Virus record (IMG/VR): IMGVR_UViG_3300021399_000117
Location: 1 to 64,000 of that record
DNA length: 64,000 nucleotides
Reading direction: 5' to 3' (one strand)
Source: a virus
Lineage: Duplodnaviria; Caudoviricetes
Shown here: piece after piece, positions 6,926 through 63,990 of the stretch
Position numbering within the stretch: position 1 is the stretch's first letter
How the letters are laid out: every line of letters begins with the position of its first letter
The notes under the pieces: model-generated
Told to the model about the DNA's origin: nothing
Databases searched by the model: none
Seen by the model: the letters and a program-made list of their open reading frames with translations, nothing else
Translations under genes and position numbers: made by a program

Positions 6926-7019
6926 AAAAATCTTTGATATAAAGAAAGATCTCCTTTCAGGTAATAAAGTGTAAAGCCTGGAGGAGATCTTTTGTTATAC
7001 TCGAAATAATCGCGCAATA
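6926..7019. repeat. dispersed AGATCT-core palindromic element, copy 1
   Basis: Inverted arms AAAGATCTCC/GGAGATCTTT; AGATCT cores at 6947 and 6985; highly similar to 37762..37855. Confidence 0.9.
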
Positions 7020-7029
7020 AATCGATTTT

Positions 7030-8649
7030 TTAATGAGCAGCATATCCGTGACCTGAATAGAAGTGTCGTGCCAAGTCGTTAATCACGCAGTTAGGGTGTT
7101 GGGTAGTGTACTTGATAGATTCTTTGATAGCATCAGTTGTACCGAGGTCCCTGTTGTACAGTTTGATATTGGTTATCATACATGGATATGGTTGAATGTA
7201 ACATTCTTGTTTCACGCCTACTTCCATATCCAAATCATATTTGCTTGTTTCGGAGTAGTACGGTTCTTCCTCAAACCAGTACATCTCTGGACGGAGCATG
7301 TATTTAGGCACATCTTCTTGATGGACGTACTTGTACAGTTCCATACTAACAGTATATAACTTACGATTCCAACGAAGGATAACCAGGCTGGTGGTGAATT
7401 GTGGTATCTCCACACTCATCCCATTGAATACCATGGTGTACATACCTGTATGAGCGTCTTGTGACATGCTAACTTGTATAGGTCCAAAGTTGATAATGTT
7501 TTGTCCTTCGGTGGGCTGACCCTGTGTCTGTAATATAAAGGACAGAGTACCGTCCGCGCCACAATATCCATTTTGATATGTAATGACAGCGCCAGGATTC
7601 TTAAATTTGTATATGGTTCGAGCGACTACGTTGCTGTGATGGTTGTACTGGTAATCGATAACAGATACGTCTTCTTTCGAATATTTTTGTCTTACAGCAT
7701 CTTGCATAGAAATGTCGTATAAATTTGTAGCAGCATATGATGGAGAGGTAAGTGGAGTGGCTCCTGTCAATCTATCCTGTTCATTACGTTCTTGTTGACC
7801 GAACACCTCTTCATAAGTATTGAGGTTGAGATTATCAATGAGACCGTTTATTTCATCCGGTATATTGATATTGGTAGAATCCTCGTACTTGATGAGAGAA
7901 AGTTTCCAAGTGGTGGGTCTCCACATCAATCCCTCGTTCTTCTCATCGTAAGCTGTGTTCACAGTCCACATACGTTTCATCATAGGTATATATATGAAAT
8001 CACGTTGTTTGGGAAACGCAGTATCGCCGAACGCCGTGGCGAACTCGGTCTTACCTACCTCCACATCCCAATCATTTTGCCAATCGAAATCAAGTGCAGT
8101 AAACTTAGGGTTGGAAGAAGGCATGGTACCGTCTGGAATCATTAGATTGATCTGCTTGACTGTTTCTACTTCATGAAGGATGTATTCTTTAAATGTGTAA
8201 TCAGCAGTATCTGCGTTAGGTTTTACCTTGAAGTAGTATACAGGTATACCAAACATACAGATGATGCTGTCTGCCAGTTGTTGTTGGAGTAGTAAGGCGC
8301 AATCCAGATTGTTGTAAGGCTTAAATAAGTTAGCGTTCCCACAGAACGTCTCCAGGAACGGATTGGTAGCGTCTACACATATACTGTAACAATTGGTAAA
8401 CAGATTGTTGATGGATACCTTCTCGAACGAATCAAACAGTAGTATGCGGAGATAGAACTCTTCTTCTATATTTTTACAAATACTCAAATAATGAGCATAG
8501 TCTGTCCAGGTGGTCCAACAAACCAGATCATTCGACCAACTGTACATGCAGTTTTTTGTAATGTCTATACCATCACAATTGAACACCTGAATAGGTCCAT
8601 AACTGACTGCTTCATTAAACTGTAGTATTCGTTTTATTACACAACTCAT
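7030..8649 (-). CDS. neck protein (T4 gp14-like N-terminal region)
   Basis: MFGIPVYYF...KFTALDFDWQ...PKQRDFIYIPMMKRMWTV pattern; preceded by TTATTATA. Confidence 0.55.
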   Translation of the reverse strand: MSCVIKRILQFNEAVSYGPIQVFNCDGIDITKNCMYSWSNDLVCWTTWTDYAHYLSICKNIEEEFYLRILLFDSFEKVSINNLFTNCYSICVDATNPFLETFCGNANLFKPYNNLDCALLLQQQLADSIICMFGIPVYYFKVKPNADTADYTFKEYILHEVETVKQINLMIPDGTMPSSNPKFTALDFDWQNDWDVEVGKTEFATAFGDTAFPKQRDFIYIPMMKRMWTVNTAYDEKNEGLMWRPTTWKLSLIKYEDSTNINIPDEINGLIDNLNLNTYEEVFGQQERNEQDRLTGATPLTSPSYAATNLYDISMQDAVRQKYSKEDVSVIDYQYNHHSNVVARTIYKFKNPGAVITYQNGYCGADGTLSFILQTQGQPTEGQNIINFGPIQVSMSQDAHTGMYTMVFNGMSVEIPQFTTSLVILRWNRKLYTVSMELYKYVHQEDVPKYMLRPEMYWFEEEPYYSETSKYDLDMEVGVKQECYIQPYPCMITNIKLYNRDLGTTDAIKESIKYTTQHPNCVINDLARHFYSGHGYAAH

Positions 8650-8656
8650 ATGATAA

Positions 8657-8664
8657 TATAATAA
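8657..8664 (-). promoter_or_regulatory. putative late promoter TTATTATA
   Basis: Exact motif found before 8 structural/late genes. Confidence 0.6.
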
Positions 8665-8693
8665 GATCGGGTCCCTGGTGTGGAGACCCGATC
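8665..8693 (-). terminator. GC-rich hairpin, probable intrinsic terminator
   Basis: GATCGGGTC...GACCCGATC just after the stop of 8700..9065. Confidence 0.55.
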
Positions 8694-8699
8694 ATCTGT

Positions 8700-9065
8700 T
8701 TAGAATTTGCCTGTGGTAGGCATCTTTATTGTGGAAGGCATTTTGAAATCAGGCATCTTAGGCATCTTAGGCATACTGTTACTCATCATCTTCTGCATAG
8801 CCCCGGGTTTAGTCATCTTCATAGCGTCTTTTGCGCCAGACTTGTCCAGTTCACTCTTTTGTTGTTCGTTTTCATCTTTAACCAGACGTTCTAGTTCTTT
8901 GGTAAATAACTCGAACTCCCAAAAGGCCATCTTGTCTATTTCAGAAGGTTGGATGCTAAACGCCTTACAAAGTTGTGCCTTGATCGATATAAGATCCATA
9001 GGATCTACCATGAAGAGGTGATAAATCGCCTCTTCAAAGTAGGTAGCCTTATCATCTAGAACCAA
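8700..9065 (-). CDS. baseplate hub assembly or tail chaperone (T4 gp51/GpE-like)
   Basis: LCKAFSIQPSEIDKMAFWEFELF motif; follows the gp26-like gene; TTG start at 9065 or ATG at 9011. Confidence 0.55.
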   Translation of the reverse strand: MVLDDKATYFEEAIYHLFMVDPMDLISIKAQLCKAFSIQPSEIDKMAFWEFELFTKELERLVKDENEQQKSELDKSGAKDAMKMTKPGAMQKMMSNSMPKMPKMPDFKMPSTIKMPTTGKF

Positions 9066-10167: not shown

Positions 10168-10252
10168 CTGCTAATTGAATTTATTTGCATATATTATAAC
10201 ACGAAAAACATGCGTTTGTCAAGAAAAATGCCTAGAAAAACCTGTCCTATCA

Positions 10253-10260: not shown

Positions 10261-10281
10261 TATACAACAAAACGAATATTT

Positions 10282-12138: not shown

Positions 12139-12154
12139 ACATATATATTAAACT

Positions 12155-21736: not shown

Positions 21737-21919
21737 ATGAGTATGTGGTTTGTTTCCAAGAAAAAGTACGATGAAGCGTTAAAAGAAAACGCTAGACTCC
21801 GAAAAGAATTGGAGCATGCCAATACTCAGATTGGTGCTCTGACCACCCTTTGGCACGAAGAGATTCGTGATCACGAACAATTTTACAAAGAAACCATTAA
21901 ACAATTACAATCATGTTAA
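21737..21919 (+). CDS. small coiled-coil hypothetical protein
   Basis: 60-aa ORF. Confidence 0.55.
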   Translation: MSMWFVSKKKYDEALKENARLRKELEHANTQIGALTTLWHEEIRDHEQFYKETIKQLQSC

Positions 21920-22617
21920 GAATAGTAGCGATGAGTGATATGCACGGCGAGCTTCCAGTTGAGGTTCAGAAGTGCGATGTAGTAGTGATCGCTGGTGACA
22001 TCATGCCACTGGACATCCAACGAAACATCCCCGCTTCAGCCAAGTGGTTTAAAGAAGTCTTTATCAAGTGGGCTAACGGTTTGCCTTGTCATAAAGTGAT
22101 CCTGGTGGCCGGTAATCATGATTTCTGGATGGAGACTGAAAGATGGAGGGGGTTATATCCACATACACCTTGTATAACGTACAGTCTATTGAGTCCGAAT
22201 AAAGATAGCAAGATTATCTATTTGCGCGATTCAGGATACGAGTTCAACGGGTACAAGTTCTGGGGTTCTCCTTGGGTTGATGGACTACCATGTTGGGCCT
22301 TCAACACCGAAACGCAAGCTACGTACTTCAATAAGATTCCACAGGACACGGATATACTTATCACTCACGCGCCAGCTTACGGAGAGGTGGGTACCGTCCT
22401 ACAAAAGTGTTGGAACTATCGTAGCAACTACGGTAGCATTGCTCTCCGTAAAGTACTAGAAGAGGAAGGTTGTCAAATCAAACTGTCGTTTGCAGGACAT
22501 ATTCATTCAGGCCTCCATGCTGGTGAGAAGATCGGCAATACTATGTGTTACAATGTGTCTATCAAAGACGAGAACTACAAATACGTATACGAGCCATTCT
22601 ATATAGAACTCGAATAA
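21913..22617 (+). CDS. calcineurin-like metallophosphoesterase
   Basis: SDMHG, AGD, GNHD, THAP, GHIH. Confidence 0.9.
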   Translation: MLRIVAMSDMHGELPVEVQKCDVVVIAGDIMPLDIQRNIPASAKWFKEVFIKWANGLPCHKVILVAGNHDFWMETERWRGLYPHTPCITYSLLSPNKDSKIIYLRDSGYEFNGYKFWGSPWVDGLPCWAFNTETQATYFNKIPQDTDILITHAPAYGEVGTVLQKCWNYRSNYGSIALRKVLEEEGCQIKLSFAGHIHSGLHAGEKIGNTMCYNVSIKDENYKYVYEPFYIELE

Positions 22618-22631
22618 ACGCGTCATATCTG

Positions 22632-22704
22632 CGATATAACAAAAGATCTCCATTCAGGTGAATAACTCTAAACCCAAATGGAGATCTTTGTTTATATTCG
22701 AAAT
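22632..22704. repeat. dispersed AGATCT-core palindromic element, copy 2
   Basis: AAAGATCTCCATT/AATGGAGATCTTT arms; cores at 22644 and 22682. Confidence 0.85.
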
Positions 22705-25344
22705 TTATTCTCTAACTTCATCTGTCTGGATAAATGCACTTTTCAGCGTCACCTCATGAATAGTATTATCACCATCGGGTCTATCCACCAGTTTGTATCG
22801 GAATATCACATCGTAGTATCCGGTATCGAGGGGTTTTCTCTTATCGGTGTAGGCGACAATAGGCTCTTTAATAGATCCTAGATTTATGTCTTCCAGCCGA
22901 CTGGCATTACGAAATACCCATTCATACGATGAAATGCGTTCCAGAAAATTGATATCAGGCACCACGCATATAGTTTCATCACGTGCTATTTTGAAGTCGT
23001 CCAAAGTGCCAGACGATATTGGTTCCAAGTAATGGAATTGCGGAATGAACACCTGGTCATTTCGAATGATCACTGGTTGAGATTTGTCTGGGTTCAATTG
23101 GTTGATCAAAGTGATATATTCTGGACCCAAAACGAAATCATATGATTTGCTTACGAACACATAATAATTGACATCATCTATCAGATTTACACCGTCTTTA
23201 GCATCGATTCCGTTGTTCAGTGTAAACTGTTTTCTAGGAACCTCATAATAATTGTATCTCAGATAATCACAAATTTCGGATCCACCATGTTCGGACAAGT
23301 ACTGCATAAAATCCAGGGTTTGATCTCCAACCAACACGTGTCCTACTAATACCAATACATTACTCAAACGAGCACCATGTCCTTTAATGTACGAAGGGAC
23401 AAACTGAGTGTAGTATGCTTGAATATTTTCAGGATCAAACTTCTTGATGTCTATAAGTGTGTGTGTGAATATATGATTACCCGCTTCTCGTGTCCTTTCA
23501 TTCTGTATATTCGCGAACGTTTGTCCTTCAGGAATAGCTTTCAATTTATATACGGTAAGCCCTACTCGACGGGTATCAATCACTTCGAAGGCTACTTTCT
23601 TGATATAGATCTGGCTATTCGCTCCCACAAATTGAACGAGAATATCATACTTGTGATCTTTGGTAAATAACAAGTTGAACTTAACATGTATGTGTCCCGA
23701 GTCATCCGCTGCGAACACCTTGCCAAAAGACCTGGTGATCCATCTATCCTCATCTTCGTCCTTGATAGATATGATGGATTTATGAATGAAGTCTCCTTCG
23801 TCGGCTGTTATAACAAATTCGAAAGGAACAATCGCGCCAGGACCAGTATAATAATTGACCATGAAATTTTTGAGTGCATCTACATCGTCGCCGAAGGCAG
23901 TTGATTTCGGATTAACCTCATCCACTCCAAAGGTCTGATGTATGTCGTAATCGTATGTACCCGGACCAGTTTTCGTATCCGTCCATGGTGTATAGAACAC
24001 AGTCTCCTTGTTGACGTTAGCAGTCACGTCACCCAATAGGAAAGTCTGCCCGTTCCTGATATTACAATCAATATCGCCCAATGATTCAAAATGATCTGTA
24101 CGGGACATGTATCCTAAAGGAATAACCTTGATAGCATTGGTATATACCAAGTCTTCGATAGTAGAGTGTATAAGATCCAGATGGATAGACATGAAATATG
24201 TTTCGTAGAAGTTACCCAATAAAGCCATCTTGATAGACAGTTCTGTTCGGCTCCACATATAAGCTACATTCTCCAAAGCCGGTACTGGTTCGGCTAATAT
24301 ACGTTCTTGTGCACTGTAGTACTCTGAATAACGGCGCCAGTTGGCACCAGCCATATCTGTATGTTCATCTGGATGATCGGTAACGTATGCTGTGCCTACA
24401 CCTATTTGAGAGAGTGTATCTTTGTCAACGCTTTGTGTGGATACTTGATCTTGTGGTAAGCTTTTATCCAGCAAGGCATTGTATATCATATCGTATTTTG
24501 CATACTCTGGATACACCTCTTTGTCATACTGAATGCCTCCATCTCCGTCTTTACTACGGACTTCCTGTTGCATAGCCAGATAGATACCGATATAGGTCGT
24601 CTTGGCAAAATTGGTGAGCATGTGTTTAGCCCGGTTCGCCAGTATCTGTGTGAACTCCTGATCGTTGTAAATGATACGCTCCCATTCCTTGTGCTTCCAG
24701 AACTCTTTGATAGTGAGCAAGTCTCCGTACTCAAACCAATGGAGTGAGTTGATGAGCGATGAATAGGATCCTTTATTACCCAGTACATCGATATAGTCCA
24801 TCAACAATTCCTTGTACTTGCGATTGAGCAAGATATTGTCTTTGGCCTCTTCGTGTACGTTGGATGGATATATAGCACGTTGAACAGACTCAGGTAATTC
24901 TACACCAAAGTTTCCTAGGTTGATTTTAAGCTCTTCGCGTTCCTCATAGAAGTCTGCACCAACTATAAATGTCTCATCGTTGATAGTGAACTCTTGGCGT
25001 GCTTCAATAGCAGTATCACTAGACCCGACCACATATATCATGTATATATAGTATTTGTCGTACTGTACACCTTCGATATCTAGTTCGTTGCAGTACATAG
25101 TCGTCAGATCCTGATATTTGATCTGGTTCATTTCGACAACGTTTCGGTCACATATCCTGCTGACATCCAATAAACGAAATACTGGATTGCCCGGCATAGA
25201 TACGTGTAAGGACTCTGAATCGCTTAGTACGCAGAGTCTTTTAACGTATATCAAATCAATGCTTTGTTGGTCATCAAACCAGTGTACATAAGGGGCATCC
25301 CCATTGTACACTCGACCATTATCTATGTTGATAAATCTAATCAT
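22705..25344 (-). CDS. large virion structural protein (probable baseplate wedge component)
   Basis: 879 aa in an operon with gp25/gp6-like genes; GNKGSYSSLINSLHWF resembles wedge proteins. Confidence 0.5.
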   Translation of the reverse strand: MIRFINIDNGRVYNGDAPYVHWFDDQQSIDLIYVKRLCVLSDSESLHVSMPGNPVFRLLDVSRICDRNVVEMNQIKYQDLTTMYCNELDIEGVQYDKYYIYMIYVVGSSDTAIEARQEFTINDETFIVGADFYEEREELKINLGNFGVELPESVQRAIYPSNVHEEAKDNILLNRKYKELLMDYIDVLGNKGSYSSLINSLHWFEYGDLLTIKEFWKHKEWERIIYNDQEFTQILANRAKHMLTNFAKTTYIGIYLAMQQEVRSKDGDGGIQYDKEVYPEYAKYDMIYNALLDKSLPQDQVSTQSVDKDTLSQIGVGTAYVTDHPDEHTDMAGANWRRYSEYYSAQERILAEPVPALENVAYMWSRTELSIKMALLGNFYETYFMSIHLDLIHSTIEDLVYTNAIKVIPLGYMSRTDHFESLGDIDCNIRNGQTFLLGDVTANVNKETVFYTPWTDTKTGPGTYDYDIHQTFGVDEVNPKSTAFGDDVDALKNFMVNYYTGPGAIVPFEFVITADEGDFIHKSIISIKDEDEDRWITRSFGKVFAADDSGHIHVKFNLLFTKDHKYDILVQFVGANSQIYIKKVAFEVIDTRRVGLTVYKLKAIPEGQTFANIQNERTREAGNHIFTHTLIDIKKFDPENIQAYYTQFVPSYIKGHGARLSNVLVLVGHVLVGDQTLDFMQYLSEHGGSEICDYLRYNYYEVPRKQFTLNNGIDAKDGVNLIDDVNYYVFVSKSYDFVLGPEYITLINQLNPDKSQPVIIRNDQVFIPQFHYLEPISSGTLDDFKIARDETICVVPDINFLERISSYEWVFRNASRLEDINLGSIKEPIVAYTDKRKPLDTGYYDVIFRYKLVDRPDGDNTIHEVTLKSAFIQTDEVRE

Positions 25345-36232: not shown

Positions 36233-36466
36233 ATGATCACTACTTTCAAAGAATATATAGCACAACAAATGGTAGGTAAGTCCTTCCATTTTATTTGCGA
36301 TTGTGTCTTTCCCATGGATTTCATAGGTACCATCAAAGGCTACGATGCATCCGGTAGTGAAATCATATTCAAAGTAGAGACTGGCAACAAAATGATTAAC
36401 ATTGGTGAGAACCATCCCAAATTAAAAGTAATACCAGTATGCGAGGCCTGTACGAAAGTATATTAG
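36233..36466 (+). CDS. hypothetical protein, possible internal head protein
   Basis: N-terminus MITTFKEYIA resembles the T4 capsid-targeting sequence. Confidence 0.6.
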   Translation: MITTFKEYIAQQMVGKSFHFICDCVFPMDFIGTIKGYDASGSEIIFKVETGNKMINIGENHPKLKVIPVCEACTKVY

Positions 36467-37749
36467 ATGATGAAGATACTATCCTATCTCGTTCGGATAG
36501 AGATGCTAATATGTTGATGTGGTCTGATATTTTGTTCGGTAGTGGGATGCTCAATAAGGGACAGTTTCGTATCAAACCCGGAAGTGACAAGGATAAGTTC
36601 AAATTGGAATACTTTGGTCAAGAATATACAGTTATTCCGATCAAGTTTCTATCAGAAAGATTATACGAACATTTTAGAAAAGGATGTGAAGGTATTTATA
36701 TATATGCTCGAAACATGATAGAGATGATGATAGGGTTTGATTTCGACTTTGACACCCTACCCCATTTTTACGATCTGGAAGGGGATGGATATGATGACCC
36801 ATTCAGAATAGGCACCACTCACATCAATCTTACTAATAACACATATACCTTGCGTAATCTGAACCCAGAAAACCTAGGAATCAATAAGAAAACAACTAAA
36901 AGCACTATATTAAAGATATTTCGCAAAATAGAGCGTGCAGATGTGACTTTCAAAGATTTTCGTTGGGATGCGCCTTATGCTGAGGTGATACTCGAAAATA
37001 TCCGCATAAAAAACACTAAACATATCGAATTGCCTGTTCGCAAAATTACAACATCCAATGTCGATGTGGACAACGCCGCAGATGATGAAACGAAAGAAAT
37101 ATGCATACTTTCGCATGTTCGCGGAGATAGAAGCACAACCGATCAAATATCGTTTAATAATGGTGTATTAAAATTGATTGATACAACTACATCATACACC
37201 GTGCGCGGCAGTTTATCAGGCATTGGAATCAAGTCTATAGTCGGGGACGGAGCAATTATGCGTAATATGCTTACCACTGACGTTCATCTTGTATCCTCAC
37301 TGAAAAAATTATGTGTAATACCATCAACTCAGAAATACATAACATTCGATACCTATAGAAATAAACCAAAAATACTGAACTATAGTCTTCATCGAGAGGT
37401 TGGTAGTGTGCTGCCAAAGATGAAATTCCGCGCCTGGTGTGACACCTCTCATGACAAAGAAAATTGGAAAGACTGGGATGATGTGTCTTGTCTCAATTTT
37501 GTATTCTATGTAGAACGCGGCGCTCTGGATCAAGTACAATCCAATTGTGTACTGATTCGTTTCGCAGATGCCTCTTCACAGATAGTCTCGGATATTCAAA
37601 AATTGTTGAAAAAACATCGTTATATTTCCGACGAAGAACTGGAGACAGTGATACCCCTATCCAATTTCGACAATCTGAAGTTCATCGTTTGGAGCGCTGG
37701 ATCGGGTGAAGGTATAGTAAAGACACCAAAAGGATGGTGCATGAAATAA
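36439..37749 (+). CDS. hypothetical protein
   Basis: 436 aa; N-terminus MRGLYESILDDE. Confidence 0.75.
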   Translation: MRGLYESILDDEDTILSRSDRDANMLMWSDILFGSGMLNKGQFRIKPGSDKDKFKLEYFGQEYTVIPIKFLSERLYEHFRKGCEGIYIYARNMIEMMIGFDFDFDTLPHFYDLEGDGYDDPFRIGTTHINLTNNTYTLRNLNPENLGINKKTTKSTILKIFRKIERADVTFKDFRWDAPYAEVILENIRIKNTKHIELPVRKITTSNVDVDNAADDETKEICILSHVRGDRSTTDQISFNNGVLKLIDTTTSYTVRGSLSGIGIKSIVGDGAIMRNMLTTDVHLVSSLKKLCVIPSTQKYITFDTYRNKPKILNYSLHREVGSVLPKMKFRAWCDTSHDKENWKDWDDVSCLNFVFYVERGALDQVQSNCVLIRFADASSQIVSDIQKLLKKHRYISDEELETVIPLSNFDNLKFIVWSAGSGEGIVKTPKGWCMK

Positions 37750-37761
37750 ATATGTATATAT

Positions 37762-37855
37762 AAAAATCTTTGATATAAACGAAGATCTCCTTTGGGGTAA
37801 TAAATTATATACCTTGAAGGAGATCTTTTGTTATACTCGAAATAATCGCACAATA
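37762..37855. repeat. dispersed AGATCT-core palindromic element, copy 3
   Basis: Cores at 37783 and 37821; highly similar to copy 1 over about 95 bp. Confidence 0.9.
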
Positions 37856-37863
37856 TGGATCAT

Positions 37864-38106
37864 TTAACGATTAGTGTATGCGTAATCTTTAAAGTGCTGC
37901 ATACGTTGAGTGAACTTCATGAGTACGATGAATGAGTTTTCCACAAACTTAAGCAGGTACTGGAACGTCTTGTTTTTTGCCTGCACAATAGTCTGTGACA
38001 TCACTTTGCTAAAGAAGCCGTGACGTTCATAATCGTAGGGTTGGTTCTTTTTGGACTCCCAACTTTCATAATCGTAGAATCTATGTCCGTTTGGATAGGT
38101 TTCCAT
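37864..38106 (-). CDS. hypothetical (structural operon) protein
   Basis: 80 aa at the end of a minus-strand structural run. Confidence 0.6.
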   Translation of the reverse strand: METYPNGHRFYDYESWESKKNQPYDYERHGFFSKVMSQTIVQAKNKTFQYLLKFVENSFIVLMKFTQRMQHFKDYAYTNR

Positions 38107-47764: not shown

Positions 47765-48331
47765 ATGAAAAAGGTAACACTTAAATACTTCAACGAAAAT
47801 CTGCACGATATATTTAATTCAGAAAGTCCTAAAGCCTACTATTGTGTCCACAAACAAACAGAAGTAAATACGGGAACACAAGGCGATTGTGACACACAAT
47901 ATTGCGAAGAACACAGTATTCCGGTTTATTTGATGGAACGTTCTGGTGGAACTATTGTATGTTCTGGAGGTAATATCGGAATTTCCGTGATTACTCCTGT
48001 TAAGCGGGGCTGGCAAACAAGTGCGTTCATGACGACTCTGACGGAGTATTTGCAAAACAAAGGTCTCGATGCAAAATGCGCAGGTAATGATATTCTTATT
48101 GAGGGGTTCAAAGTAGCATCTAGTGCAGAGATTCGTGTAGGAGATGATTTGAAGAATGTTTATAGCACCTATCAAATATCCATCAATCAAGATATTGAAG
48201 CTATCAAACATATCTGCAAAAAGGAAATGGTTAAAATACCAAAAGCTCTTTCAGATTACGGAATAACAACGGAAGAAATTGTTGATTTTTGCAAATCTTA
48301 TTGGGACAATCTTATTAAAACTCAACTCTGA
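47765..48331 (+). CDS. lipoate-protein ligase-like (BPL/LplA/LipB catalytic domain)
   Basis: IPVYLMERSGGTIV..GN, GNDILIEGFKVASSA. Confidence 0.7.
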   Translation: MKKVTLKYFNENLHDIFNSESPKAYYCVHKQTEVNTGTQGDCDTQYCEEHSIPVYLMERSGGTIVCSGGNIGISVITPVKRGWQTSAFMTTLTEYLQNKGLDAKCAGNDILIEGFKVASSAEIRVGDDLKNVYSTYQISINQDIEAIKHICKKEMVKIPKALSDYGITTEEIVDFCKSYWDNLIKTQL

Positions 48332-48403
48332 CAAAAGATCTTTTTTGAATAACATGAGTTTCATTCTCAGCGAGATCTCTCTTTAGAATTGAAATAAACA
48401 ATA
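48331..48403. repeat. degenerate AGATCT-core element, copy 4
   Basis: AGATCT at 48336 and 48373 (37 apart), AATAA in the spacer, GAAATAA tail. Confidence 0.55.
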
Positions 48404-48437
48404 AAAAAAACCTCTTCGTAATACGAAGGGGTTTTTT
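48403..48437. terminator. bidirectional intrinsic terminator
   Basis: A-tract-CCTCTTCGTA-A-TACGAAGGGG-T-tract between convergent genes. Confidence 0.75.
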
Positions 48438-54011: not shown

Positions 54012-57000
54012 ATGACTAAAGATATTACACTGGAACAATCATTGCAGGCGTACCGCGTGATGTCCACACCAACCAAACTCTCCTGGAAACAACACTGGGC
54101 TCAGGAGACCTTTTCTGATGTGGATTATTTGAAGTGCGATCCAATGGAACGGAAGCAATTTAACAAGCGTTTACAAGAATGCCAGGTAACGATATGTTCG
54201 AACATCAAACAGACGCAAGGTATCTCGTGTACACTGGAGGATCTGGTGAATACTATCATTTCTCCTGATAATAAGAATTGCGCAAAGATCAATCGTAAAG
54301 TAATATATTCCACGTCGAACGGAGAACGACCTATAGGTAAGAAAGCATTTGAACTCTGGAATGGTTTTCAGGTCATCGATATGGATATCAAAGATGAACA
54401 GTTGGCACAGAAACTGAAGGTGCACATCTTCAATCACCTCAATAAGTGCAACTGGTTCTTGGGTTGCACCTTATCTAGTTCGGGTAAGGGTCTCCATGTC
54501 TATACCAAGATCGCTATTGCTGATGCAGATCAAGAGGACGACAAGCGTAAGAAACTGTTGTTCTTGACGAACTTCAGACATAAGTATTCATTTGTGTACA
54601 TAGCTTGTTTGAGCGCCATGGAAGAACTTCACTTCAGCAAAGATGACTTGTTGAAATGGATGGACTTGGCTATGTTCAAACCCCAACAAGGTGCGTTCAT
54701 CGGATATGATGAGCACCCTTTGATCAACACACACTTCTTCGAAGATTTCATATACGTGAACTTCGATAACATAGAGGATATCGGACATCCGGATATTGAC
54801 TGGGTGACTTATCCTGACTTGAAAGAGATATTCAAACGCTGGGAGTGGTTCGAAGACAATGATGAGGAGGACTTGAAGGTGGAAGTACTTGAAGCCAAAG
54901 ATCTAGAGTTCGATACTCATAACAGAGTTCACTACAAACACAATGAACGTTGGCGTCTGGCGAACACCTTGGTTAAACTGTACGGACTGGAGAAAGGATT
55001 CAAGTATCTCCGTCTGATATGTTCAAACGCTATATCTGATAAAGAGTTGCAGGCAGACTGTATCACAGCAGCTCGCCATGAGAAACCCGTGGATACTTGG
55101 GCGGTTAATCGACTGAACTCCCAACACGGATTCAAGATCAAGTTGAACATCCAGGACGAGGCCTTCGACGAGAGTGCGATATTTAGTAGTGTAGATAAGA
55201 TTGAGAACCCGACACTGATACGTGAGAGCAAGTACGTCAAGACCTTTCATATCACAAAGAACGAGTATCTGGGTAACATCAAATGGGAGTTACTCAATAA
55301 CATCGGACGAATCACGCTGATCGAAGCAGGCGCTGGTGTGGGTAAGACGGAGATGATCAAGTCCCTGGTTCGCGATGGTAAAAAAGTGGTGATGGTCATG
55401 CCGTTCACCTCTACTATCAAGTCTAAGGTAGAAGGAGAGGATGACTGGTACTACAGCTACGGTAACAAGAAACCACGACTAGATCTGACCCGAGGCGTGT
55501 CCATGACTATTGATAAGTTCTCACACATGAACCTGATGGATATCAAGGCTGCAGGGTTTGATTATATAATTATAGATGAGTCCCATCTGATGTTCATGAG
55601 TGAATACAGGCCTGTCATGCCTAAGATCATCGAGATGATTCGTAACACGGAGGTGCCTATTATTCTTATGTCAGGAACACCTAGTGGAGAAACTGTGTTC
55701 TTTCCGGATATCGTTCACCTGAAAGTTATCAAGGAGGATGTCCGCAAAAAAGAGTTCATGGTGAATCTTGTTGAAAACAGCAGCGATCTGATGTATCATA
55801 TGTGTCGATCTATGGCAAACGATATAGCAGAAGGCAAAAGGGTGTTGTTCCCAACAAATAAAGGTACTCTGTTCAGCGAGCAGATCAAGGCAGCGGTTCA
55901 GTACTTCCTTGAAAAGGAACATCTCATCTTTGACGAAGTACGATTGAAGTACTACAAGAAGTCCAATCTAGGCGAGCAGTTCATGGATGATGTCAACTTC
56001 GAAAAGACTATTAAGGACACTCAAATCCTGATGTGCTCCAGTTACCTCTCGGTAGGCGTAGACATCTTGGATAGGTTCAAGTTCAATATATACTTTGATG
56101 ATCTCATGATGCCTCAGGAGGTAGAGCAGTTTGCTAACCGATTGAGATCGAATGACTTGTATATCCGACTGTACATTGCCAAGAATGATGCAGATGGAAA
56201 CTCTCGTTCGATACACAAGTTCAAACCCATGAACTTCAAATTGAATGATGAGGAGATCAAAGATGTTCACTCTATATTGCGTTTGTGTAATGCGATGATT
56301 GAACGTAACCCGGTTGAATACAGATATAACTCCTTGGTAGCGTCTATCATTCATGACAACACATATATTGAATACAACGATGTAGAAAACAAGTACTACC
56401 TGAACGAAATAGCATACAAAGTAGTATATTTCGAACGCAAGTATCGAGAATATGTGCAACAACTTCCTGTGTTGATGAAGGGCATGATGGCGTACGGATA
56501 CGAGATCAGTTCAAAAGACTTAGGAGGATTTGCATTGGAGGATGGCGAGATCTTTACTGACTTGAAGAACATGGTTAAGCTCGCATACGATGATCGCTTG
56601 CAACTCAATACACGTCACGTAGAGGAACTAATGGACATGATCACTGAAGATCGGTTGACTATATATCGGGATGTGCTTCAGGGGGTTTATGACATCAAGA
56701 AGGGAGATGTCTGGAAGGAGGATCTTTTCAAACGCACGATGACAGTTAAGAACGTAGAGGTATTTGAGAAAGTGGTGCCAATCTTCGTCAGCATGTCCAA
56801 GCAGTATAACGTAGAGGACATTAAAAGCATATTCGAGAGCTGTCGCAACAAGAACGGATCATTCAACTTCGCAGCAATCAAACGTATCAAATTGTTAATC
56901 AATCTGGTATACAATAACAAGAAAGAGCGGTTGGATATTCCGATCCAGGACTTTATGAACAAGGTATACGACTTCTGTCAGTACGAGACAGTCAAGAAGA

Positions 57001-57320
57001 CAGAGATAACCAAGTTCTTACACGATTATGCACGGCAGTATGCCACACATGAATCACAGGGTGATGTTAAGATCTACCTAGCACAGATCACTATGGAAAA
57101 GATTCAGAACACCTTTACGGATATATTCAAGTGTCTGGTAAATATGTCGCGACCAAATAAGCAAGGCATCTGCACACTCGAAAAGGTTGAACTTCTTTGG
57201 AAGGAACGCGAAGAATATGAGAAAATTGATAACAATGAACACTCATTCTTGTTGGCAGAGTTCCTTGAAAATCAACATGTTGACTATCAAGAAGTCCATA
57301 TGAATGACCAAGTGATGTAA
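54012..57320 (+). CDS. primase (BT4734/VirE-N AEP-like plus PriCT-like) fused to an SF2 helicase
   Basis: IDMD, SSSGKGLH; AGAGVGKT, DESH, MSGT, SVGVDI, QFANRLR. Confidence 0.8.
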   Translation: MTKDITLEQSLQAYRVMSTPTKLSWKQHWAQETFSDVDYLKCDPMERKQFNKRLQECQVTICSNIKQTQGISCTLEDLVNTIISPDNKNCAKINRKVIYSTSNGERPIGKKAFELWNGFQVIDMDIKDEQLAQKLKVHIFNHLNKCNWFLGCTLSSSGKGLHVYTKIAIADADQEDDKRKKLLFLTNFRHKYSFVYIACLSAMEELHFSKDDLLKWMDLAMFKPQQGAFIGYDEHPLINTHFFEDFIYVNFDNIEDIGHPDIDWVTYPDLKEIFKRWEWFEDNDEEDLKVEVLEAKDLEFDTHNRVHYKHNERWRLANTLVKLYGLEKGFKYLRLICSNAISDKELQADCITAARHEKPVDTWAVNRLNSQHGFKIKLNIQDEAFDESAIFSSVDKIENPTLIRESKYVKTFHITKNEYLGNIKWELLNNIGRITLIEAGAGVGKTEMIKSLVRDGKKVVMVMPFTSTIKSKVEGEDDWYYSYGNKKPRLDLTRGVSMTIDKFSHMNLMDIKAAGFDYIIIDESHLMFMSEYRPVMPKIIEMIRNTEVPIILMSGTPSGETVFFPDIVHLKVIKEDVRKKEFMVNLVENSSDLMYHMCRSMANDIAEGKRVLFPTNKGTLFSEQIKAAVQYFLEKEHLIFDEVRLKYYKKSNLGEQFMDDVNFEKTIKDTQILMCSSYLSVGVDILDRFKFNIYFDDLMMPQEVEQFANRLRSNDLYIRLYIAKNDADGNSRSIHKFKPMNFKLNDEEIKDVHSILRLCNAMIERNPVEYRYNSLVASIIHDNTYIEYNDVENKYYLNEIAYKVVYFERKYREYVQQLPVLMKGMMAYGYEISSKDLGGFALEDGEIFTDLKNMVKLAYDDRLQLNTRHVEELMDMITEDRLTIYRDVLQGVYDIKKGDVWKEDLFKRTMTVKNVEVFEKVVPIFVSMSKQYNVEDIKSIFESCRNKNGSFNFAAIKRIKLLINLVYNNKKERLDIPIQDFMNKVYDFCQYETVKKTEITKFLHDYARQYATHESQGDVKIYLAQITMEKIQNTFTDIFKCLVNMSRPNKQGICTLEKVELLWKEREEYEKIDNNEHSFLLAEFLENQHVDYQEVHMNDQVM

Positions 57321-58691: not shown

Positions 58692-58994
58692 ATGAAAATA
58701 GAAATTTGTATAATTTTAGTAACGCTGATAGTATTAGCATTATTATGTGTATTGTTACAGGATCACAGTAGAAATAAAAGAAGAAGACAACAATTATCTT
58801 GTAATCACGATTTCAAATACAAACAGAATGTTTGGGGTTACGAAGGAGATATATTGATGCATCAATATGAATGCACAAAATGCGGAAGAAAAGACTACCT
58901 TATTGCCCGTGATGATCAGGATAAAGATTGGAATCATGGCAAAGGAGATGGAAAGCTTTGTGATATTGACAGACAAGAATGCCCTCGTAATTAA
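58692..58994 (+). CDS. membrane-anchored small Zn-finger protein
   Basis: N-terminal TM, C.H...CTKCG. Confidence 0.65.
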   Translation: MKIEICIILVTLIVLALLCVLLQDHSRNKRRRQQLSCNHDFKYKQNVWGYEGDILMHQYECTKCGRKDYLIARDDQDKDWNHGKGDGKLCDIDRQECPRN

Positions 58995-59034
58995 ACTGTT
59001 CAAAAAAAATTGATGTGCCTTTGGTACTTCGTTA

Positions 59035-59097
59035 ACAAGGTCTTGAAAAACTTTGGAATTTCATTAAATATTTTCAGCTTTTTTAGATATATATACA
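59035..59097 (+). promoter_or_regulatory. TGAAA-N10-TTTCA unit overlapping a putative early/middle promoter
   Basis: ACAAGGTCTTGAAAAACTTTGGAATTTCATTAAA...GATATATATACA. Confidence 0.65.
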
Positions 59098-59113
59098 TAA
59101 AACAAAAAAGCAT

Positions 59114-59290
59114 ATGACTCTTTGGATAGTACTTACAGTGTTTTCTATAGTAATAATGGTAGCCAGTTGGATTCGCAGCAAGACTCACAACGAATCTATA
59201 GATGATGATTCCACTCTGTCCGGCGCGGGATTTGCTATAGGAGCAATGGGGACTCTTTTCTTTGGGATAATAACAATACTTTGTATATAA
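59114..59290 (+). CDS. 58-aa 2-TM membrane protein (not in ORF track)
   Basis: MTLWIVLTVFSIVIMVASWIRS...GFAIGAMGTLFFGIITILCI. Confidence 0.6.
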   Translation: MTLWIVLTVFSIVIMVASWIRSKTHNESIDDDSTLSGAGFAIGAMGTLFFGIITILCI

Positions 59291-59293
59291 GAT

Positions 59294-59482
59294 ATGTCAA
59301 TCCTTTCAATTCTCGGTATGTGCATGATGGCAATATCGTTTGTCGCACAGGTCAATATCGACGCAAAACAAAAAAGTATGGATCCTAAACCACTAACTGA
59401 GGATGAACACAAGTCTCTGACCGCTCAATGGGCATTCTGTTTCAGCCTGGGTGCTTTAGTATTCTTAATAGGACTGCTATGA
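59294..59482 (+). CDS. 62-aa 2-TM membrane protein
   Basis: Two hydrophobic helices. Confidence 0.6.
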   Translation: MSILSILGMCMMAISFVAQVNIDAKQKSMDPKPLTEDEHKSLTAQWAFCFSLGALVFLIGLL

Positions 59483-61003: not shown

Positions 61004-61236
61004 TAGACGATTCCTTTTATTATTGAAAATAAACTACAGAATATGGCACTATTAGACGTTGTTGATAATATAAAGGAACATCTCTGTCATACTCATAAAC
61101 AGCAAGACAATCCCGCTGAATGGAATCTTCATAACATTTCGAACAGTGGTTCTTGGGTAGGGGAGACTATACAAAAAGACTGATCTGTCATTCTGGGGAG
61201 TAAAACATCTTGCAAATAACCTCCATCATATATTTC

Positions 61237-61271
61237 AAAAGACTCAATGGTAAAACATTGAGTCTTTTTTT
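61237..61271 (+). terminator. intrinsic terminator
   Basis: AAAAGACTCAATG-GTAAAA-CATTGAGTCTTTTTTT. Confidence 0.7.
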
Positions 61272-61283
61272 ATATATTTATAC

Positions 61284-61430
61284 ATGCAGATGCAGACCAA
61301 TGAAATAAAAATATTACATCCGGACAATCCAATGATTTGTCCATCCTGTGGGTCCAAACATGTACGCTGCTATGCGGGTATGATGACCAACAGATATGAG
61401 TGTCAGGATTGTCACAAGGAGTGGAGATGA
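61284..61430 (+). CDS. 48-aa Zn-ribbon protein (not in ORF track)
   Basis: CPSCGS...YECQDCHKEW; TATATTTATACA immediately upstream. Confidence 0.6.
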   Translation: MQMQTNEIKILHPDNPMICPSCGSKHVRCYAGMMTNRYECQDCHKEWR

Positions 61431-61434
61431 CAAT

Positions 61435-61725
61435 ATGTTACTAAAAGACAAACTAATTATGGTCTTCTACGTAGGTGTAAAAGACTGTGACATGATTCGT
61501 GCAGCCGAAAGATTAGCCGCGACGCGCAACCACTTTGAATCATTGAACGATGAGAGTGTTGAATTTATTTTCGTACCAAATTTCGAAACCCATTCCTGTA
61601 GAGTAGATGCCATTAACCCTCAACGTATTTCAGATGAGGAATACGAAAAGGTATCGGAGATGGTTGAGAACTACAAGAATCATCTAAAAAAATTCTACGA
61701 GAAACATGGCGAGGTTCAGGGATGA
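61435..61725 (+). CDS. hypothetical protein
   Basis: MLLKDKLIMVFYVGV...INP; ATG at 61435. Confidence 0.65.
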   Translation: MLLKDKLIMVFYVGVKDCDMIRAAERLAATRNHFESLNDESVEFIFVPNFETHSCRVDAINPQRISDEEYEKVSEMVENYKNHLKKFYEKHGEVQG

Positions 61726-62155
61726 TTTCATAGCGGCGCACCCAGCATGGCATTCTGGCCACATATTCGCAGATATGGACCAAGATACGAAAGACGGGTA
61801 TACTGATCTGTACATAGCTGCTGTTTATTGGATGAAAGGATATTTGAATGGTAGAACCATGCCTGAAGATGAGGCATTGAAATATGTGAGCATGCTCTCT
61901 AAACATATCTTGCCTATCATCATCAGATTGCGCCATAACTTCGATATTGATTATACTGACTTCAACAGACTGGTAAAAGAAGTGCTTGCGACTAAGGTAG
62001 AAGGAGTAGACGAGAGCAAAAGGAAGTATTTGGCTGATTTAGGTATTGATGCGGATGTCGAAATAATCCGGGTTATCAATGAGCAACAGGTTCGCAGAAT
62101 TGCCAGACTACATGGTTTTAGTGATCTCGAAATAGAACAACGCATATACTTATGA
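61706..62155 (+). CDS. hypothetical protein
   Basis: 149 aa, coupled to the UvsW gene. Confidence 0.65.
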   Translation: MARFRDDFIAAHPAWHSGHIFADMDQDTKDGYTDLYIAAVYWMKGYLNGRTMPEDEALKYVSMLSKHILPIIIRLRHNFDIDYTDFNRLVKEVLATKVEGVDESKRKYLADLGIDADVEIIRVINEQQVRRIARLHGFSDLEIEQRIYL

Positions 62156-63891
62156 TCAACGCGCTGTATAATCCTGCTGACTTAAGGTACATGTTCTTTA
62201 CAGGAGATATGACTGAGTTGGCTTCTTGTCGGGGAAAAGATAAAAAACATCGGCACCCCAATCTGGAAGACTATCTCAATCCGATTCCATCATACATGTT
62301 CTTGCCTTCCTTTAGAGGGGTACCAAAACCCGAGGTATTTCTCCATAAGTTCAAGAATACCAAAGGACAGATTGTGTACTACTGTCATAGCGGATTATGG
62401 AAGACCGTGTTTGATTGGTGTAAGAAAAAGAACATCGTTGTCGAGGTACAGAACCTGGATCAGTTCAAGTACACTGATTTTGATATGACTCTGGAAGAGT
62501 TCACTGAGTACGTTAACAACTGGGAGATCACACTCAACCCGTACCCATATCAGTTGAAAGCTGCCTGGTTGATACTTCACTACAGACAATCCCTGAGTCA
62601 ACTAGCTACTCGTGCTGGTAAGACACTCATTGCATACATCGTGTTCAGATATATGATTGAACACGGTGCTAACAAGATCCTTATGGTGGTACCCAACACC
62701 ACTCTTATCAAGCAGGCTGTTAAGGATTTCGATGATTATAAAGAATATTTCCTATCCGAGACCGTGTGGGCTGATGGGGAGACTGTCGAAGGAAGTAACC
62801 TGACCATTGGCACGTTCCAGTCTTTAGTCAAGAGAGCGGACAAACGTTCAGTCAAGTACGATCCACACTTTTTCGACCAGTACGATGTGGTATTAGTGGA
62901 CGAAGCCCACACCCTAGCATGTGACTCTATCAACACCATTCTCAATCAGCCGTTCGCCAAGAACCTAAAACTGAAATTTGGTTTCTCAGGATCCTTGCCT
63001 GATGAGAACACCATTGAGTCATTCTGCTGTCATGCTCTGATGGGTCCTACCATACAAGACATACGCAGTAAGGAGCTGATGGACGGAGGTTTTATCACCC
63101 CTATCGACATCACACAGATTCGCATTAAGCACGAGATGACCGAAGAACTCAGACAGACATACGTTCGTTGTGCAGAATATCTGAATAGCAACCCGGTTCA
63201 AGAAACATATATCAACAAGCGAGGTAAGTTGGAAAAACGAAATAAACTCCTGCCTGTCGATCAACGTGAGTTCACTATCCAGGAGGAGCGCCACTTGCCG
63301 TTAGTGCTTCGAGAGATGCAGAATGGGGACCCAGATGAGTACTTCGATTACCTGATCGATCTCTGTAAGGCACGAGGCAGCAATATCCTCATGCTAGAGC
63401 AGATGTTGGTGCATCGGGACAAAAAACGCCTAGATGTGATTGAAGAGTTATTAAACAGGATGCACAAGAATTGCATCGTGTTTGCACATCATACCGAATA
63501 TCTGAAGTTTTTACAAAAGTATTTCACAGAGAAGTTTCCGAATCGCCCCATATATCTCATTACTGGCAACACCGCAGAAAAAGCACGTGAAAAAATCATC
63601 CGTGCCCTACTTACTGACATGGGTGCCATTCTCTTTGCATCATATGGTTGTGTGGGTACTGGTCTGACTCTCAAGAACATCGATTACGGTATCTTTGCGC
63701 AGTCCTTCAAATCTCATATCATCAACAAACAAGCACTCGGTCGTGGTCTGTGTCTGGCTAACGATAAAGAAAAGTACTATTTGTTTGATCTGGTGGATGA
63801 GTACCCTACAGAACGACTAAAAGTACAAGGTATCGAGAAGATGAAACTATACAAGTCCGAGAAGTTCGATACACGTATTATCAAACGATAA
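62152..63891 (+). CDS. uvsW: UvsW-like SF2 DNA helicase
   Basis: PYPYQ, ATRAGKT, DEAH, FSGS, GTGLTLKN, QALGRGL. Confidence 0.9.
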   Translation: MINALYNPADLRYMFFTGDMTELASCRGKDKKHRHPNLEDYLNPIPSYMFLPSFRGVPKPEVFLHKFKNTKGQIVYYCHSGLWKTVFDWCKKKNIVVEVQNLDQFKYTDFDMTLEEFTEYVNNWEITLNPYPYQLKAAWLILHYRQSLSQLATRAGKTLIAYIVFRYMIEHGANKILMVVPNTTLIKQAVKDFDDYKEYFLSETVWADGETVEGSNLTIGTFQSLVKRADKRSVKYDPHFFDQYDVVLVDEAHTLACDSINTILNQPFAKNLKLKFGFSGSLPDENTIESFCCHALMGPTIQDIRSKELMDGGFITPIDITQIRIKHEMTEELRQTYVRCAEYLNSNPVQETYINKRGKLEKRNKLLPVDQREFTIQEERHLPLVLREMQNGDPDEYFDYLIDLCKARGSNILMLEQMLVHRDKKRLDVIEELLNRMHKNCIVFAHHTEYLKFLQKYFTEKFPNRPIYLITGNTAEKAREKIIRALLTDMGAILFASYGCVGTGLTLKNIDYGIFAQSFKSHIINKQALGRGLCLANDKEKYYLFDLVDEYPTERLKVQGIEKMKLYKSEKFDTRIIKR

Positions 63892-63932
63892 AAGAAAAAT
63901 CGCATTATTGCTCGTTTATTTGAGTTCTAATG

Positions 63933-63990
63933 CGATTTTTTATTTGGCTTAATAAAGTACTCAGCTCAAAAAAGATCTTTTGTTAAATCA
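63933..63990. repeat. diverged AGATCT-core element, copy 5
   Basis: TAATAAAGT lies 23 nt before AGATCTTTTGTTA, exactly as in copy 1; left arm degenerate. Confidence 0.55.

Follow-up and report, generated by a model that had tools for sequence, protein, structure and literature searches.

The hyperplastic regions of T4-type phages contain promoter-early stem-loop cassettes (PeSLs), in which a stem-loop is joined to a strong sigma-70-like early promoter in front of early genes (Arbiol et al., 2010, PMC2839356; Comeau et al., 2014, PMC4122927). Among bacterial repeats, REPs are high-copy units of 20–40 bp with a GTAG or CGTC head and associated RAYT transposases. REP/BIME elements have been credited with roles in termination, mRNA stabilisation and supercoiling (PMC3733652). 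Here we describe a family of dispersed palindromes in an uncultured, T4-like phage from the animal gut, whose relatives carry the family too. Our preferred reading, to which we assign a probability of roughly 0.55, is that each element is a PeSL-like cassette that acts as a bidirectional transcription stop, or 3′ hairpin, and is homogenised by recombination.

The element unit is about 100 bases long: a palindrome with a GATC/AGATCT core and a variable inner stem in each arm, an AT-rich loop, and a conserved flank motif on the right side only (GTTA..CG.AAATAA.CGCGCAATAA). The window, by which we mean the whole 64,000-nucleotide stretch analysed, contains three matches to the strict pattern AGATCTCC-N28-GGAGATCT against 0.01 expected, and none of 100 shuffles contained three or more; the repeat family recognised in an earlier note is thus real. 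The word AGATCT by itself is not enriched (27 matches vs 24.8 expected). A covariance model (R1) built from 19 family members, a check which that note had proposed, matched only the five sites of that note in the window, here called c1, c2, c3, c48 and c63, with E values below 1e-12 for the first three. The two AGATCT cores are 38 nt apart in c1–c3 and 37 nt apart in c48, and the intervals between copies (15.7, 15.1, 10.6 and 15.6 kb) are as originally reported. The copies are not evenly spaced: in G001, a complete relative of 197.5 kb, intervals range from about 7 to 31 kb, tracking the lengths of the transcription units.

The three intact palindromes lie where they had first been noticed. 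The first, c1 (6925–7026, plus strand; pattern match at 6947–6990; 98.8 bits, E 1e-16), is flanked by an AAA_28 kinase-like gene (6381–6923, +) and a 539-aa late structural gene (7030–8649, −); its AGATCT cores occupy 6947–6952 and 6985–6990, with the asymmetric flank motif at about 6991–7024, and its syntenic partner in G001 is at 88467–88563. Folded as RNA, it reaches −30.2 kcal/mol on the plus strand and −24.1 on the minus strand (z −5.5 and −4.5). The second, c2 (22608–22709, minus strand; pattern match at 22644–22687; 79.0 bits on the minus strand vs 67.4 on the plus strand), lies between a metallophosphoesterase gene (21913–22617, +) and an 879-aa gene (22705–25344, −). The third, c3 (37761–37860, plus strand; pattern match at 37783–37826; 97.3 bits; fold z −6.6 on the plus and −4.4 on the minus strand), separates a 436-aa gene (36439–37749, +) from an 80-aa gene (37864–38106, −).

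The remaining two sites are homologous to these, as had been claimed, but they are remnants rather than palindromes. In c48 (48314–48412, plus strand; 37.3 bits, E 5e-4; orthologue in G001 at 130290–130370, nhmmer E 3e-7) both AGATCT words persist but the hairpin is lost (DNA fold z +0.7). Directly adjoining it, as the earlier note had seen, is a plain short bidirectional terminator (48402–48437), which by sequence and junction fold consists of an A-run, an 8-bp GC-rich stem and a T-run. In c63 (63899–64000, minus strand; 66.7 bits, E 5e-10; G001 orthologue at 147130–147226), which follows the uvsW-like helicase gene (62152–63891, +) and reaches the window edge, the right-arm AGATCT is gone, the flank motif is retained, and the old palindrome, as in c48, folds as DNA no better than shuffled sequence (z +0.9). 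Junction folds place a substitute hairpin within it (63895–63942), formed of an A-run, a 9-bp stem (ATCGCATTA / TAATGCGAT) with the flank motif as loop, and a T-run; the predicted structure looks like a bidirectional terminator, and its G001 counterpart has the same layout with an 11-bp stem. The claim that all copies share one orientation holds for the loop only: by the asymmetric flank and the model score, c2 and c63 run in the opposite sense to c1 and c3.

The family extends past the window. In total, the 131.6-kb record (G000) has eight copies, each with a syntenic partner in G001, and each more distant relative has 2–9. The family is therefore kept in related phages; it has no match in Rfam or among cultured phages, and a search of 185,579 prokaryote genomes likewise turned up no copy.

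The location of the elements is strikingly uniform. In a survey of 34 non-redundant members from seven phage records, every one is located at the downstream end of genes, in most cases at a convergent junction, and none was found inside a gene or at a divergent junction. All five window sites are at convergent junctions, including the end of the uvsW-like gene, which the earlier note had set apart, since a gene on the minus strand begins at 63988. Short bidirectional terminators of the classic kind are found instead at the remaining credible convergent junctions of G000 (68.3, 112.1 and 122.0 kb), and the plain terminators of this phage have stems of 8–12 bp. Decayed palindromes lie beside a separate terminator at c48, at c63, at 83.6 kb in G002 and at 38.7 kb in G001, and a classic terminator also adjoins some members with a fair hairpin (20.2 kb in G001, and c128). 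The elements form a continuum with plain terminators: the G002 site orthologous to c2 has an AGATCT hairpin of 17 bp that closes on a 5-nt loop and is bordered by A/T runs, without the flank motif, and the site at 69.9 kb in G001 has a short GATC hairpin with A6 and T7 runs plus a remnant of the motif. Among the pieces listed, none of the assembled, low-depth RNA contigs spans an element.

The stem of the hairpin is under selection. Copies c1–c3 fold far better than shuffled sequences, both as RNA on either strand (z −4.4 to −6.6) and as DNA (z −4.9 to −5.5), and intact copies form nearly continuous, AU-rich helices of 28–33 bp on either strand, with loops of 10–15 nt; on both strands, the stem is preceded by an A-run and followed by a T-run. 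Across the alignment, 72.8% of stem cells are paired vs 66.4% in shuffles (a value reached by 0 of 500), dropping to 40–50% when the partners are slid, and 16 of 28 stem pairs have changes on both sides; for example, AGATCTCC/GGAGATCT in c1 becomes AGATCTTC/GAAGATCT in its orthologue. Such compensatory changes show selection on pairing, and the pattern is symmetric between the strands. Stems vary among relatives: the inner stem of G005 is GC-rich (CACCGTCCC/GGGACGGTG, then CTTTTATT), and those in G004, G006 and G002 are shorter or interrupted. GATC is near-invariant in both arms. Sequence conservation of the GATC arms and the flank motif reaches as far as relatives in which the adjacent 539-aa protein has only about 40% identity.

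Of the alternatives raised in the earlier note, a structured RNA (terminator or processing site) fits these observations best, given the 3′-end location, the compensated stem, the two-sided A/T tracts, a distribution complementary to that of ordinary bidirectional terminators, and the substitutes beside decayed copies. The arms would pair into a long hairpin in RNA from either strand, and, because of the A-run before and the T-run after the stem on both strands, this hairpin would end, and probably protect, both converging transcripts, keeping adjacent transcription units separate. Against this reading, loops of 10–15 nt and AU-rich stems of 28–33 bp are unusual for intrinsic terminators, and some members with a fair hairpin have, as noted, a classic terminator beside them.

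The second half of our preferred reading concerns recombination. Two G001 copies 146 kb apart are identical over 51 of 51 nt of their inner part, with flanks only 58–68% alike; c1, c3 and their orthologues have mosaic inner parts; the G005 copies are homogeneous among themselves; and the loop core of c2 matches its G001 orthologue at 12 of 14 positions when inverted vs 8 of 14 directly. These comparisons indicate that copies within one genome exchange sequence and that loops flip between relatives. The elements also border rearrangements: G001 synteny blocks start or stop at the edges of c3 (in blastn, at its left edge, 37762), c63 and c128, the copy at 86.3 kb is a 92%-identical island between flanks that cannot be aligned, and one G002 copy joins homologues of the genes to the left of c1 and to the right of c3, although the excess of synteny breakpoints at elements (4 of 8, vs 20 of 75 other intergenic regions) is not significant (p = 0.16). 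Assemblies break at the elements as well: DNA contigs stop within c1 and c3, and both ends of the G008 contig fall in copies. Gene conversion among the copies in a genome would keep their sequences alike, and recombining copies could serve as joints for the exchange of gene modules, as has been proposed for PeSL cassettes.

Termination alone does not account for the near-invariant GATC cores, the asymmetric flank motif, the loop flips and the copy exchange, all of which are facts at the level of DNA. An alternative that we regard as unlikely, if worth keeping in mind, is that a phage protein reads the palindrome, in the form of a cruciform or of a lagging-strand hairpin, together with its GATC cores and flank motif; possible roles include a hot spot for breaks or recombination that seeds recombination-dependent replication, a site for nicking or clamp loading, a topoisomerase site at which supercoils that arise where genes converge are relaxed, or an origin of replication. 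The arms and motif are conserved beyond what pairing needs, and the motif outlasts decay of the hairpin and keeps no constant direction with respect to transcription: where the adjacent genes are co-directional, it is found upstream of the hairpin in 6 cases (G000, G001 and G005) and downstream of it in 6 others (G004 and G006). Stem mismatches likewise lack strand bias (42 of G-U type, 40 of A-C type). The flips and exchange show that the arms interact as DNA, but both are expected of any dispersed inverted repeat, functional or not; the AT-rich centre favours extrusion, but the non-pairing loops disfavour cruciforms; and T4-type recombination genes are present, with an SbcC/Rad50-like gene beside the 108-kb copy, but the element arms, at 30–40 bp, are short for cleavage of the type carried out by E. 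coli SbcCD. The strict 3′-end location and the complementarity to plain terminators are predicted by a terminator and not by an origin. Baculovirus hr regions are tandem repeat arrays, bound by IE1, with enhancer or origin activity; the idea of hr-like origins in this phage gained no positive support, as the elements are single units found at gene 3′ ends only. No candidate binding protein was found: in Pfam, the 1102-aa protein (54012–57320) that had been proposed as a primase–helicase reader shows a DEAD helicase domain only, and no primase domain.

We think it improbable that the elements are instead RNase III-type sites, at which a double-strand-specific RNase of host or phage would cut the stem, setting and stabilising mRNA 3′ ends. 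RNase III needs roughly 20 bp, which the intact helices exceed on both strands and the 8–12-bp plain terminators of the same genome do not, and the likeness among sites parallels phage T7, whose conserved RNase III sites form a family of intergenic hairpins that resemble one another, have long double-stranded stems and mark the ends of mRNAs; however, the A/T tracts and the simple terminators that replace decayed copies favour termination over cleavage, and the G004, G006 and G002 stems are short or interrupted. Least probable is a functionless, REP- or MITE-like selfish palindrome tolerated at gene ends: dispersal with an oriented one-sided end, both orientations, greater likeness within than between genomes, and presence at rearrangement edges and assembly breaks would suit it, but all eight G000 copies have syntenic G001 partners with no filled/empty site polymorphism or target-site duplication seen, G000, G001 and G002 encode no Y1 (IS200/RAYT-type) transposase (control genomes do match), the prokaryote genomes searched lack the element, compensatory changes show that pairing is selected, and divergent and 5′ intergenic regions, in which a neutral element should turn up as well, contain no copy.

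Returning to the proposed two-sided terminator cassette, comparison with described systems bears on how it should be classed. As in baculovirus hr regions, imperfect palindromes that contain a restriction-site core are scattered over a large viral genome, but each element here is single and confined to gene 3′ ends. Like T7 RNase III sites, they are a family of similar intergenic hairpins with long stems, whereas those of T7 work on a single strand, in a genome that is co-directional, and contain characteristic internal loops. With REP/BIME elements (PMC3733652), they share dispersal as imperfect extragenic palindromes at gene 3′ ends in both orientations, but at about 100 bp, with 4–10 copies per phage record, no Y1 transposase and none in the bacterial genomes searched, they are a different kind of repeat. 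Bidirectional intrinsic (Rho-independent) terminators have the same A-run/hairpin/T-run between convergent genes, usable on both strands, and the elements are placed at junctions like those that carry this phage's plain terminators; they differ in a stem 2–3 times longer, the larger loop, sequence conservation across copies and diverged genomes, and the extra asymmetric motif. PeSLs, finally, are likewise sequence-conserved regulatory cassettes of about 100 bp dispersed intergenically in T4-like phages (PMC2839356, PMC4122927), contain a stem-loop acting as terminator or attenuator (here a predicted role), and are proposed homologous linkers for swaps of gene modules, much as our elements exchange sequence and border rearrangements. 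Unlike PeSLs, the elements show no promoter, lie at gene 3′ ends, mostly at convergent junctions, and are distinguished by GATC cores, by a palindrome of much greater length and by a flank motif on one side. The same phage also has a separate PeSL-like early cassette, with a hairpin, a T-run and TATATAT. With their probable two-sided transcription stop and their exchange of sequence, the elements resemble known phage regulatory cassettes rather than replication origins.

Scanning the window with R1, a covariance model of the element built from 19 members, returned exactly the five sites listed in the earlier note, which had named this check, and no others. Three are good copies (c1, 6925-7026, plus strand; c2, 22608-22709, minus strand; c3, 37761-37860, plus strand), which match the pattern AGATCTCC-N28-GGAGATCT at 6947, 22644 and 37783 where 0.01 matches are expected, and the spacings (38, 38, 38 and 37 nt) reported between AGATCT cores, like the reported intervals between copies, are correct. 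The remaining two, at 48.3 and 63.9 kb (c48, 48314-48412, plus strand; c63, 63899-64000, minus strand), are true relatives, with orthologues in the close complete relative G001 that score better, but their palindrome has been lost. The copies do not all share one orientation, as had been claimed: judged both by the one-sided motif and by the score of the model, c1 and c3 face one way, c2 and the 63.9-kb copy the other. That claim went astray because loops may be inverted: with the arms unchanged, c2 and its G001 orthologue have loops that are reverse complements of each other (12 of 14 positions agree inverted vs 8 of 14 direct), and two copies in the more distant relative G005 are likewise flipped (34/35 inverted vs 24/35 direct). 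We rejected a site-specific invertase as the cause, since the flipped segment is only 14-28 bp long.

From left to right, the element consists of an AAAATC left end, an outer arm ending TAA(C), an A-run, a GATC or AGATCT core, a variable inner stem, an AT-rich loop, the mirror-image arm, TTTT-GTTA and finally the one-sided motif CG.AAATAA.CGCGCAATAA, which is what orients it. On either strand each of c1-c3 folds, far better than shuffled sequences, into a hairpin of 28-33 bp with a 10-15-nt loop; for intact copies, whichever strand is folded, the energies are -23 to -31 kcal/mol (z -4.4 to -6.6). After GGAGATC comes TTTTGTTAT on one strand and either TTTCTTTAT or TTCGTTTAT on the opposite strand, and on both strands the stable hairpin directly precedes a T/U-rich tract, as in a bidirectional terminator.

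The repeat family is real and conserved across the lineage. Applied to the whole source record (G000), nhmmer added copies at 86.3, 108.3 and 128.7 kb, and a pattern scan of IMG/VR led to G001 (197,528 bp, complete, with terminal repeats) and G002 (97 kb); the loose scans of viral contigs otherwise gave mostly unrelated coding sequence, these two being the only true relatives among their matches. G001, whose proteins are 89-96% identical to those of G000, has a syntenic partner for all eight G000 copies, plus further copies in the part absent from G000. More distant relatives, reached via an alignment of a neighbouring 539-aa protein, also carry copies according to the model (G005, 8-9; G004, 5; G006 and G008, 2 each; G007, none), and the non-redundant members number 34. 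The arm-plus-motif pattern had no match in 185,579 prokaryote genomes, the family is rare in JGI metagenomes, no Rfam family matched anywhere in the window at gathering score, and our literature search found no description of this palindrome family. Logan DNA contigs of the source sample (run X1) end inside c1 and c3 (6984-7011 and 37762-37847), and the c3 end of one of them also maps to c1 with 10 differences; the contigs break at these copies because the two share long identical words, and since repeats break de Bruijn assemblies, this may explain why relatives are fragmentary. The G008 contig (158,646 bp) starts and ends inside two different copies (18-121 and 158456-158559) that have about 75 nt in common and then diverge, so its ends are probably where the assembly broke at the repeat and not true ends of the genome.

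For the analysis of pairing we set a structure of 28 pairs by hand, because RNAalifold gave none on the MAFFT alignment owing to register shifts, and used shuffles and slid partners as controls. Paired cells make up 72.8% of the total, compared with 66.4% in shuffles (none of 500 reach the observed value) and 40-50% with slid partners, and 16 of the 28 pairs include changes on both sides. Mismatches of the G-U type (42) and the A-C type (40) are equally common and neither strand folds consistently better, which lends no support to a function in RNA from one strand and implies a constraint that is the same for both strands, acting either on the RNA transcribed from each or on the DNA itself.

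All members lie downstream of genes, and they mark the ends of transcription units between convergent genes: every window copy (5/5) and seven of the eight G000 copies occupy convergent junctions, the eighth a co-directional one. The other credible convergent junctions of G000 (68.3, 112.1 and 122.0 kb) have ordinary short bidirectional terminators, consisting of an A-run, a GC-rich stem of 8-12 bp and a T-run. The decayed members are each accompanied by a substitute: a classic terminator adjoins c48 (48402-48437), a new hairpin has been built around the motif at c63, and adjoining substitutes are likewise found at 83.6 kb in G002 and 38.7 kb in G001. The G002 site orthologous to c2 (37488-37638) has a 17-bp hairpin with an AGATCT core, a 5-nt loop and A/T runs, which has no flank motif and scores below the model threshold; at 69.9 kb in G001, a short GATC hairpin with A6/T7 runs accompanies a remnant of the motif; and in the G005 copies the inner stem is GC-rich. 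Taken together, these observations imply that the selected property is that of a two-way hairpin terminator or a 3′-end protector. The metatranscriptome of the source sample holds the phage as thin, low-depth assembled contigs, and among the pieces listed none covers c1 or c2 or any other element, so termination is something we infer. Two further observations concern individual junctions. A candidate fifth convergent junction (58994-59000 of the window) has neither element nor terminator and rests on two short unverified minus-strand ORFs of 62 and 75 aa within 58994-59412. The one co-directional copy is followed, about 400 nt downstream and past a short ORF, by an SbcC/Rad50-like gene of the T4 gp46 type (108691-110334 in G000; orthologue at 189825-191468 in G001).

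Our preferred reading of these sequence comparisons, to which we assign a probability of roughly 0.55, is that the element is a bidirectional terminator or 3′-hairpin cassette that recombination has homogenised, a variation on the PeSL/REP kind of element. Exchange between copies is evident in several places. Two G001 copies lying 146 kb apart have a 51-nt inner sequence in common, identical throughout, within flanks only 58-68% alike, and they match each other better than either matches the orthologue in G000; c1, c3 and their orthologues have mosaic inner parts; and the G005 copies resemble one another rather than those of G000. Blocks of G000/G001 synteny have a start or an end where c3, c63 and the copy at 128.7 kb have their edges, the 86.3-kb copy is an island of 92% identity between unalignable flanks, and one G002 copy joins homologues of the left neighbour gene of c1 and the right neighbour gene of c3. 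Breakpoints fell at four of eight elements vs 20 of 75 other intergenic regions, a difference that is not significant (p = 0.16) in the one close pair compared. The element is kept at c3 and c63 despite neighbour genes that differ between the two genomes: beside c3, G000 has a 436-aa gene (36439-37749) where G001 has an 86-aa gene (117754-118014), and beside c63, after position 63891 of the window, G001 has an extra 183-aa gene (146568-147119).

Unlikely, though deserving some weight, is a site that acts as DNA. Even among relatives whose neighbouring protein is only ~40% identical, sequence conservation extends to the GATC of both arms and to the one-sided motif, and the motif outlives loss of the hairpin. 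In these genomes nhmmer matches it only inside family members, which rules it out as a general promoter or operator, and its sense relative to transcription varies: of the cases at co-directional junctions, six have it upstream of the hairpin and six downstream, split by lineage. These properties leave room for a DNA-level reader, and the invariant GATC pair together with the surviving motif points to a sequence-specific one as a candidate. GATC is only mildly avoided (observed/expected ~0.8), so the cores are not islands in a GATC-free genome. In a fuller and rather improbable version, the palindromes would be programmed DNA-level sites, rather than or besides terminators, whose hairpin or cruciform and GATC-plus-flank motif would be read by a phage protein, either the T4-type Mre11/Rad50 nuclease (gp46/47, SbcCD-like) or an unknown motif binder. 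Recognition would lead to DNA being broken or nicked where transcription units end; the breaks could initiate recombination-dependent replication, giving the sites the function of dispersed origins, and could also drive gene conversion, loop flipping and module exchange. The analogy to baculovirus hr-type origins drawn in the earlier note finds no positive support: hr regions are tandem arrays of palindrome-containing repeats, whereas each site here has a single unit beside which the model detects no second copy, and the elements occur only at 3′ ends. Its suggested reader, a 1102-aa protein (54012-57320), shows only a DEAD helicase domain, and nothing links it to the elements.

A processing site for RNase III, as in T7, has a slight chance: the helices of intact copies exceed the double-stranded RNA stem of at least ~20 bp that such a site calls for. 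Slimmer still is the prospect of a selfish or mobile repeat, which is weakened by the full synteny of the eight G000 copies with G001 (one close pair compared), by the absence of the element from bacteria and by that of a Y1 transposase (PF01797 has no match in G000, G001 or G002 and does match in 6 control genomes); moreover, no target-site duplication is seen at element edges. The target-site duplication and the filled and empty sites expected of a MITE or other transposon-derived repeat with terminal inverted repeats were thus not seen in that pair. Neither a host REP nor a solitary CRISPR-repeat mimic, an RNA anti-CRISPR that resembles the repeat of a host CRISPR array (PMC10651486), has support, since in the 185,579 prokaryote genomes the motif-only pattern gave two isolated matches, about the chance level, and no arrays.

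The G000 record (IMG/VR; 131,565 bp, with the window as its bases 1-64000; rated 62% complete, 41% G+C) encodes a large terminase, baseplate and tail-fibre proteins, a B-family DNA polymerase, a UvsW-like SF2 helicase and an SbcC/Rad50-like protein. A search for tRNA genes found none. The closest polymerases are those of cultured T4-like cyanophages, at only ~24% identity, and the public runs holding its DNA are animal-gut metagenomes; judged by this gene content, polymerase identity and source, the phage is an uncultured, distant T4-like myovirus. It has no annotated relative, given that polymerase identity and a blastn search with the c1 region that matched nothing in the cultured-phage database. 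The lineage is a large one: 793 homologues of one neighbouring structural protein can be detected in public metagenomes. G000 also carries a second conserved cassette, a GAGGAAATC-ACTAAA-GATTTCCTC hairpin followed by a T-run and, ~20-40 nt ahead of the start codon, TATATAT(A)TAC, at plus-strand genes (1117, 4173, 13825 and 16292 in the window; 71398, 78126, 85225, 97633 and 128249 in the full record), which resembles the early promoter/terminator (PeSL) cassettes that T4-type phages carry. At 20-30 nt ahead of the start codons of structural genes (window 8649(-), 42699(-), 42803(+), 45295(+) and 51195(-); full record 90880(-), 115317(-) and 117930(+)) there is a TTATTATA motif, which is probably the late promoter of this lineage, differing from that of T4 (TATAAATA); in the 86.3-kb palindrome copy, TTATTATA replaces the usual TTGTTATA.

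As markers for the ends of its transcription units, the lineage appears to use a dedicated palindromic cassette conserved in sequence, not ad hoc hairpins. Should the elements be terminators, they would extend the PeSL idea from the starts of genes to their ends, with regulatory cassettes doubling as recombination linkers, and would serve as ready markers when transcription units and module boundaries are annotated in these metagenomic genomes. In addition, the family provides clean natural cases of two processes in a virus, concerted evolution and the inversion of hairpin loops.

Compared with intrinsic terminators, the element is atypical in its loop and stem length. REP/BIME units, which are RAYT-associated, are palindromes of 20-40 bp with a GTAG or CGTC head and a RAYT/Y1 transposase, whereas ours is a ~100-bp unit with no such head and no PF01797 match, so we do not place it among them. 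PeSL cassettes join a strong sigma-70-like early promoter to a stem-loop upstream of an early gene; here, what lies downstream of the element is the 3′ end of the opposing gene, and a consensus scan placed no promoter-like site within c1, whose best promoter reading (TTGTTA-N17-CAATAA) has a poor -10 hexamer. Copies exchange sequence here in the way described for PeSL cassettes, and they may likewise delimit the indels and replacements that separate close relatives.
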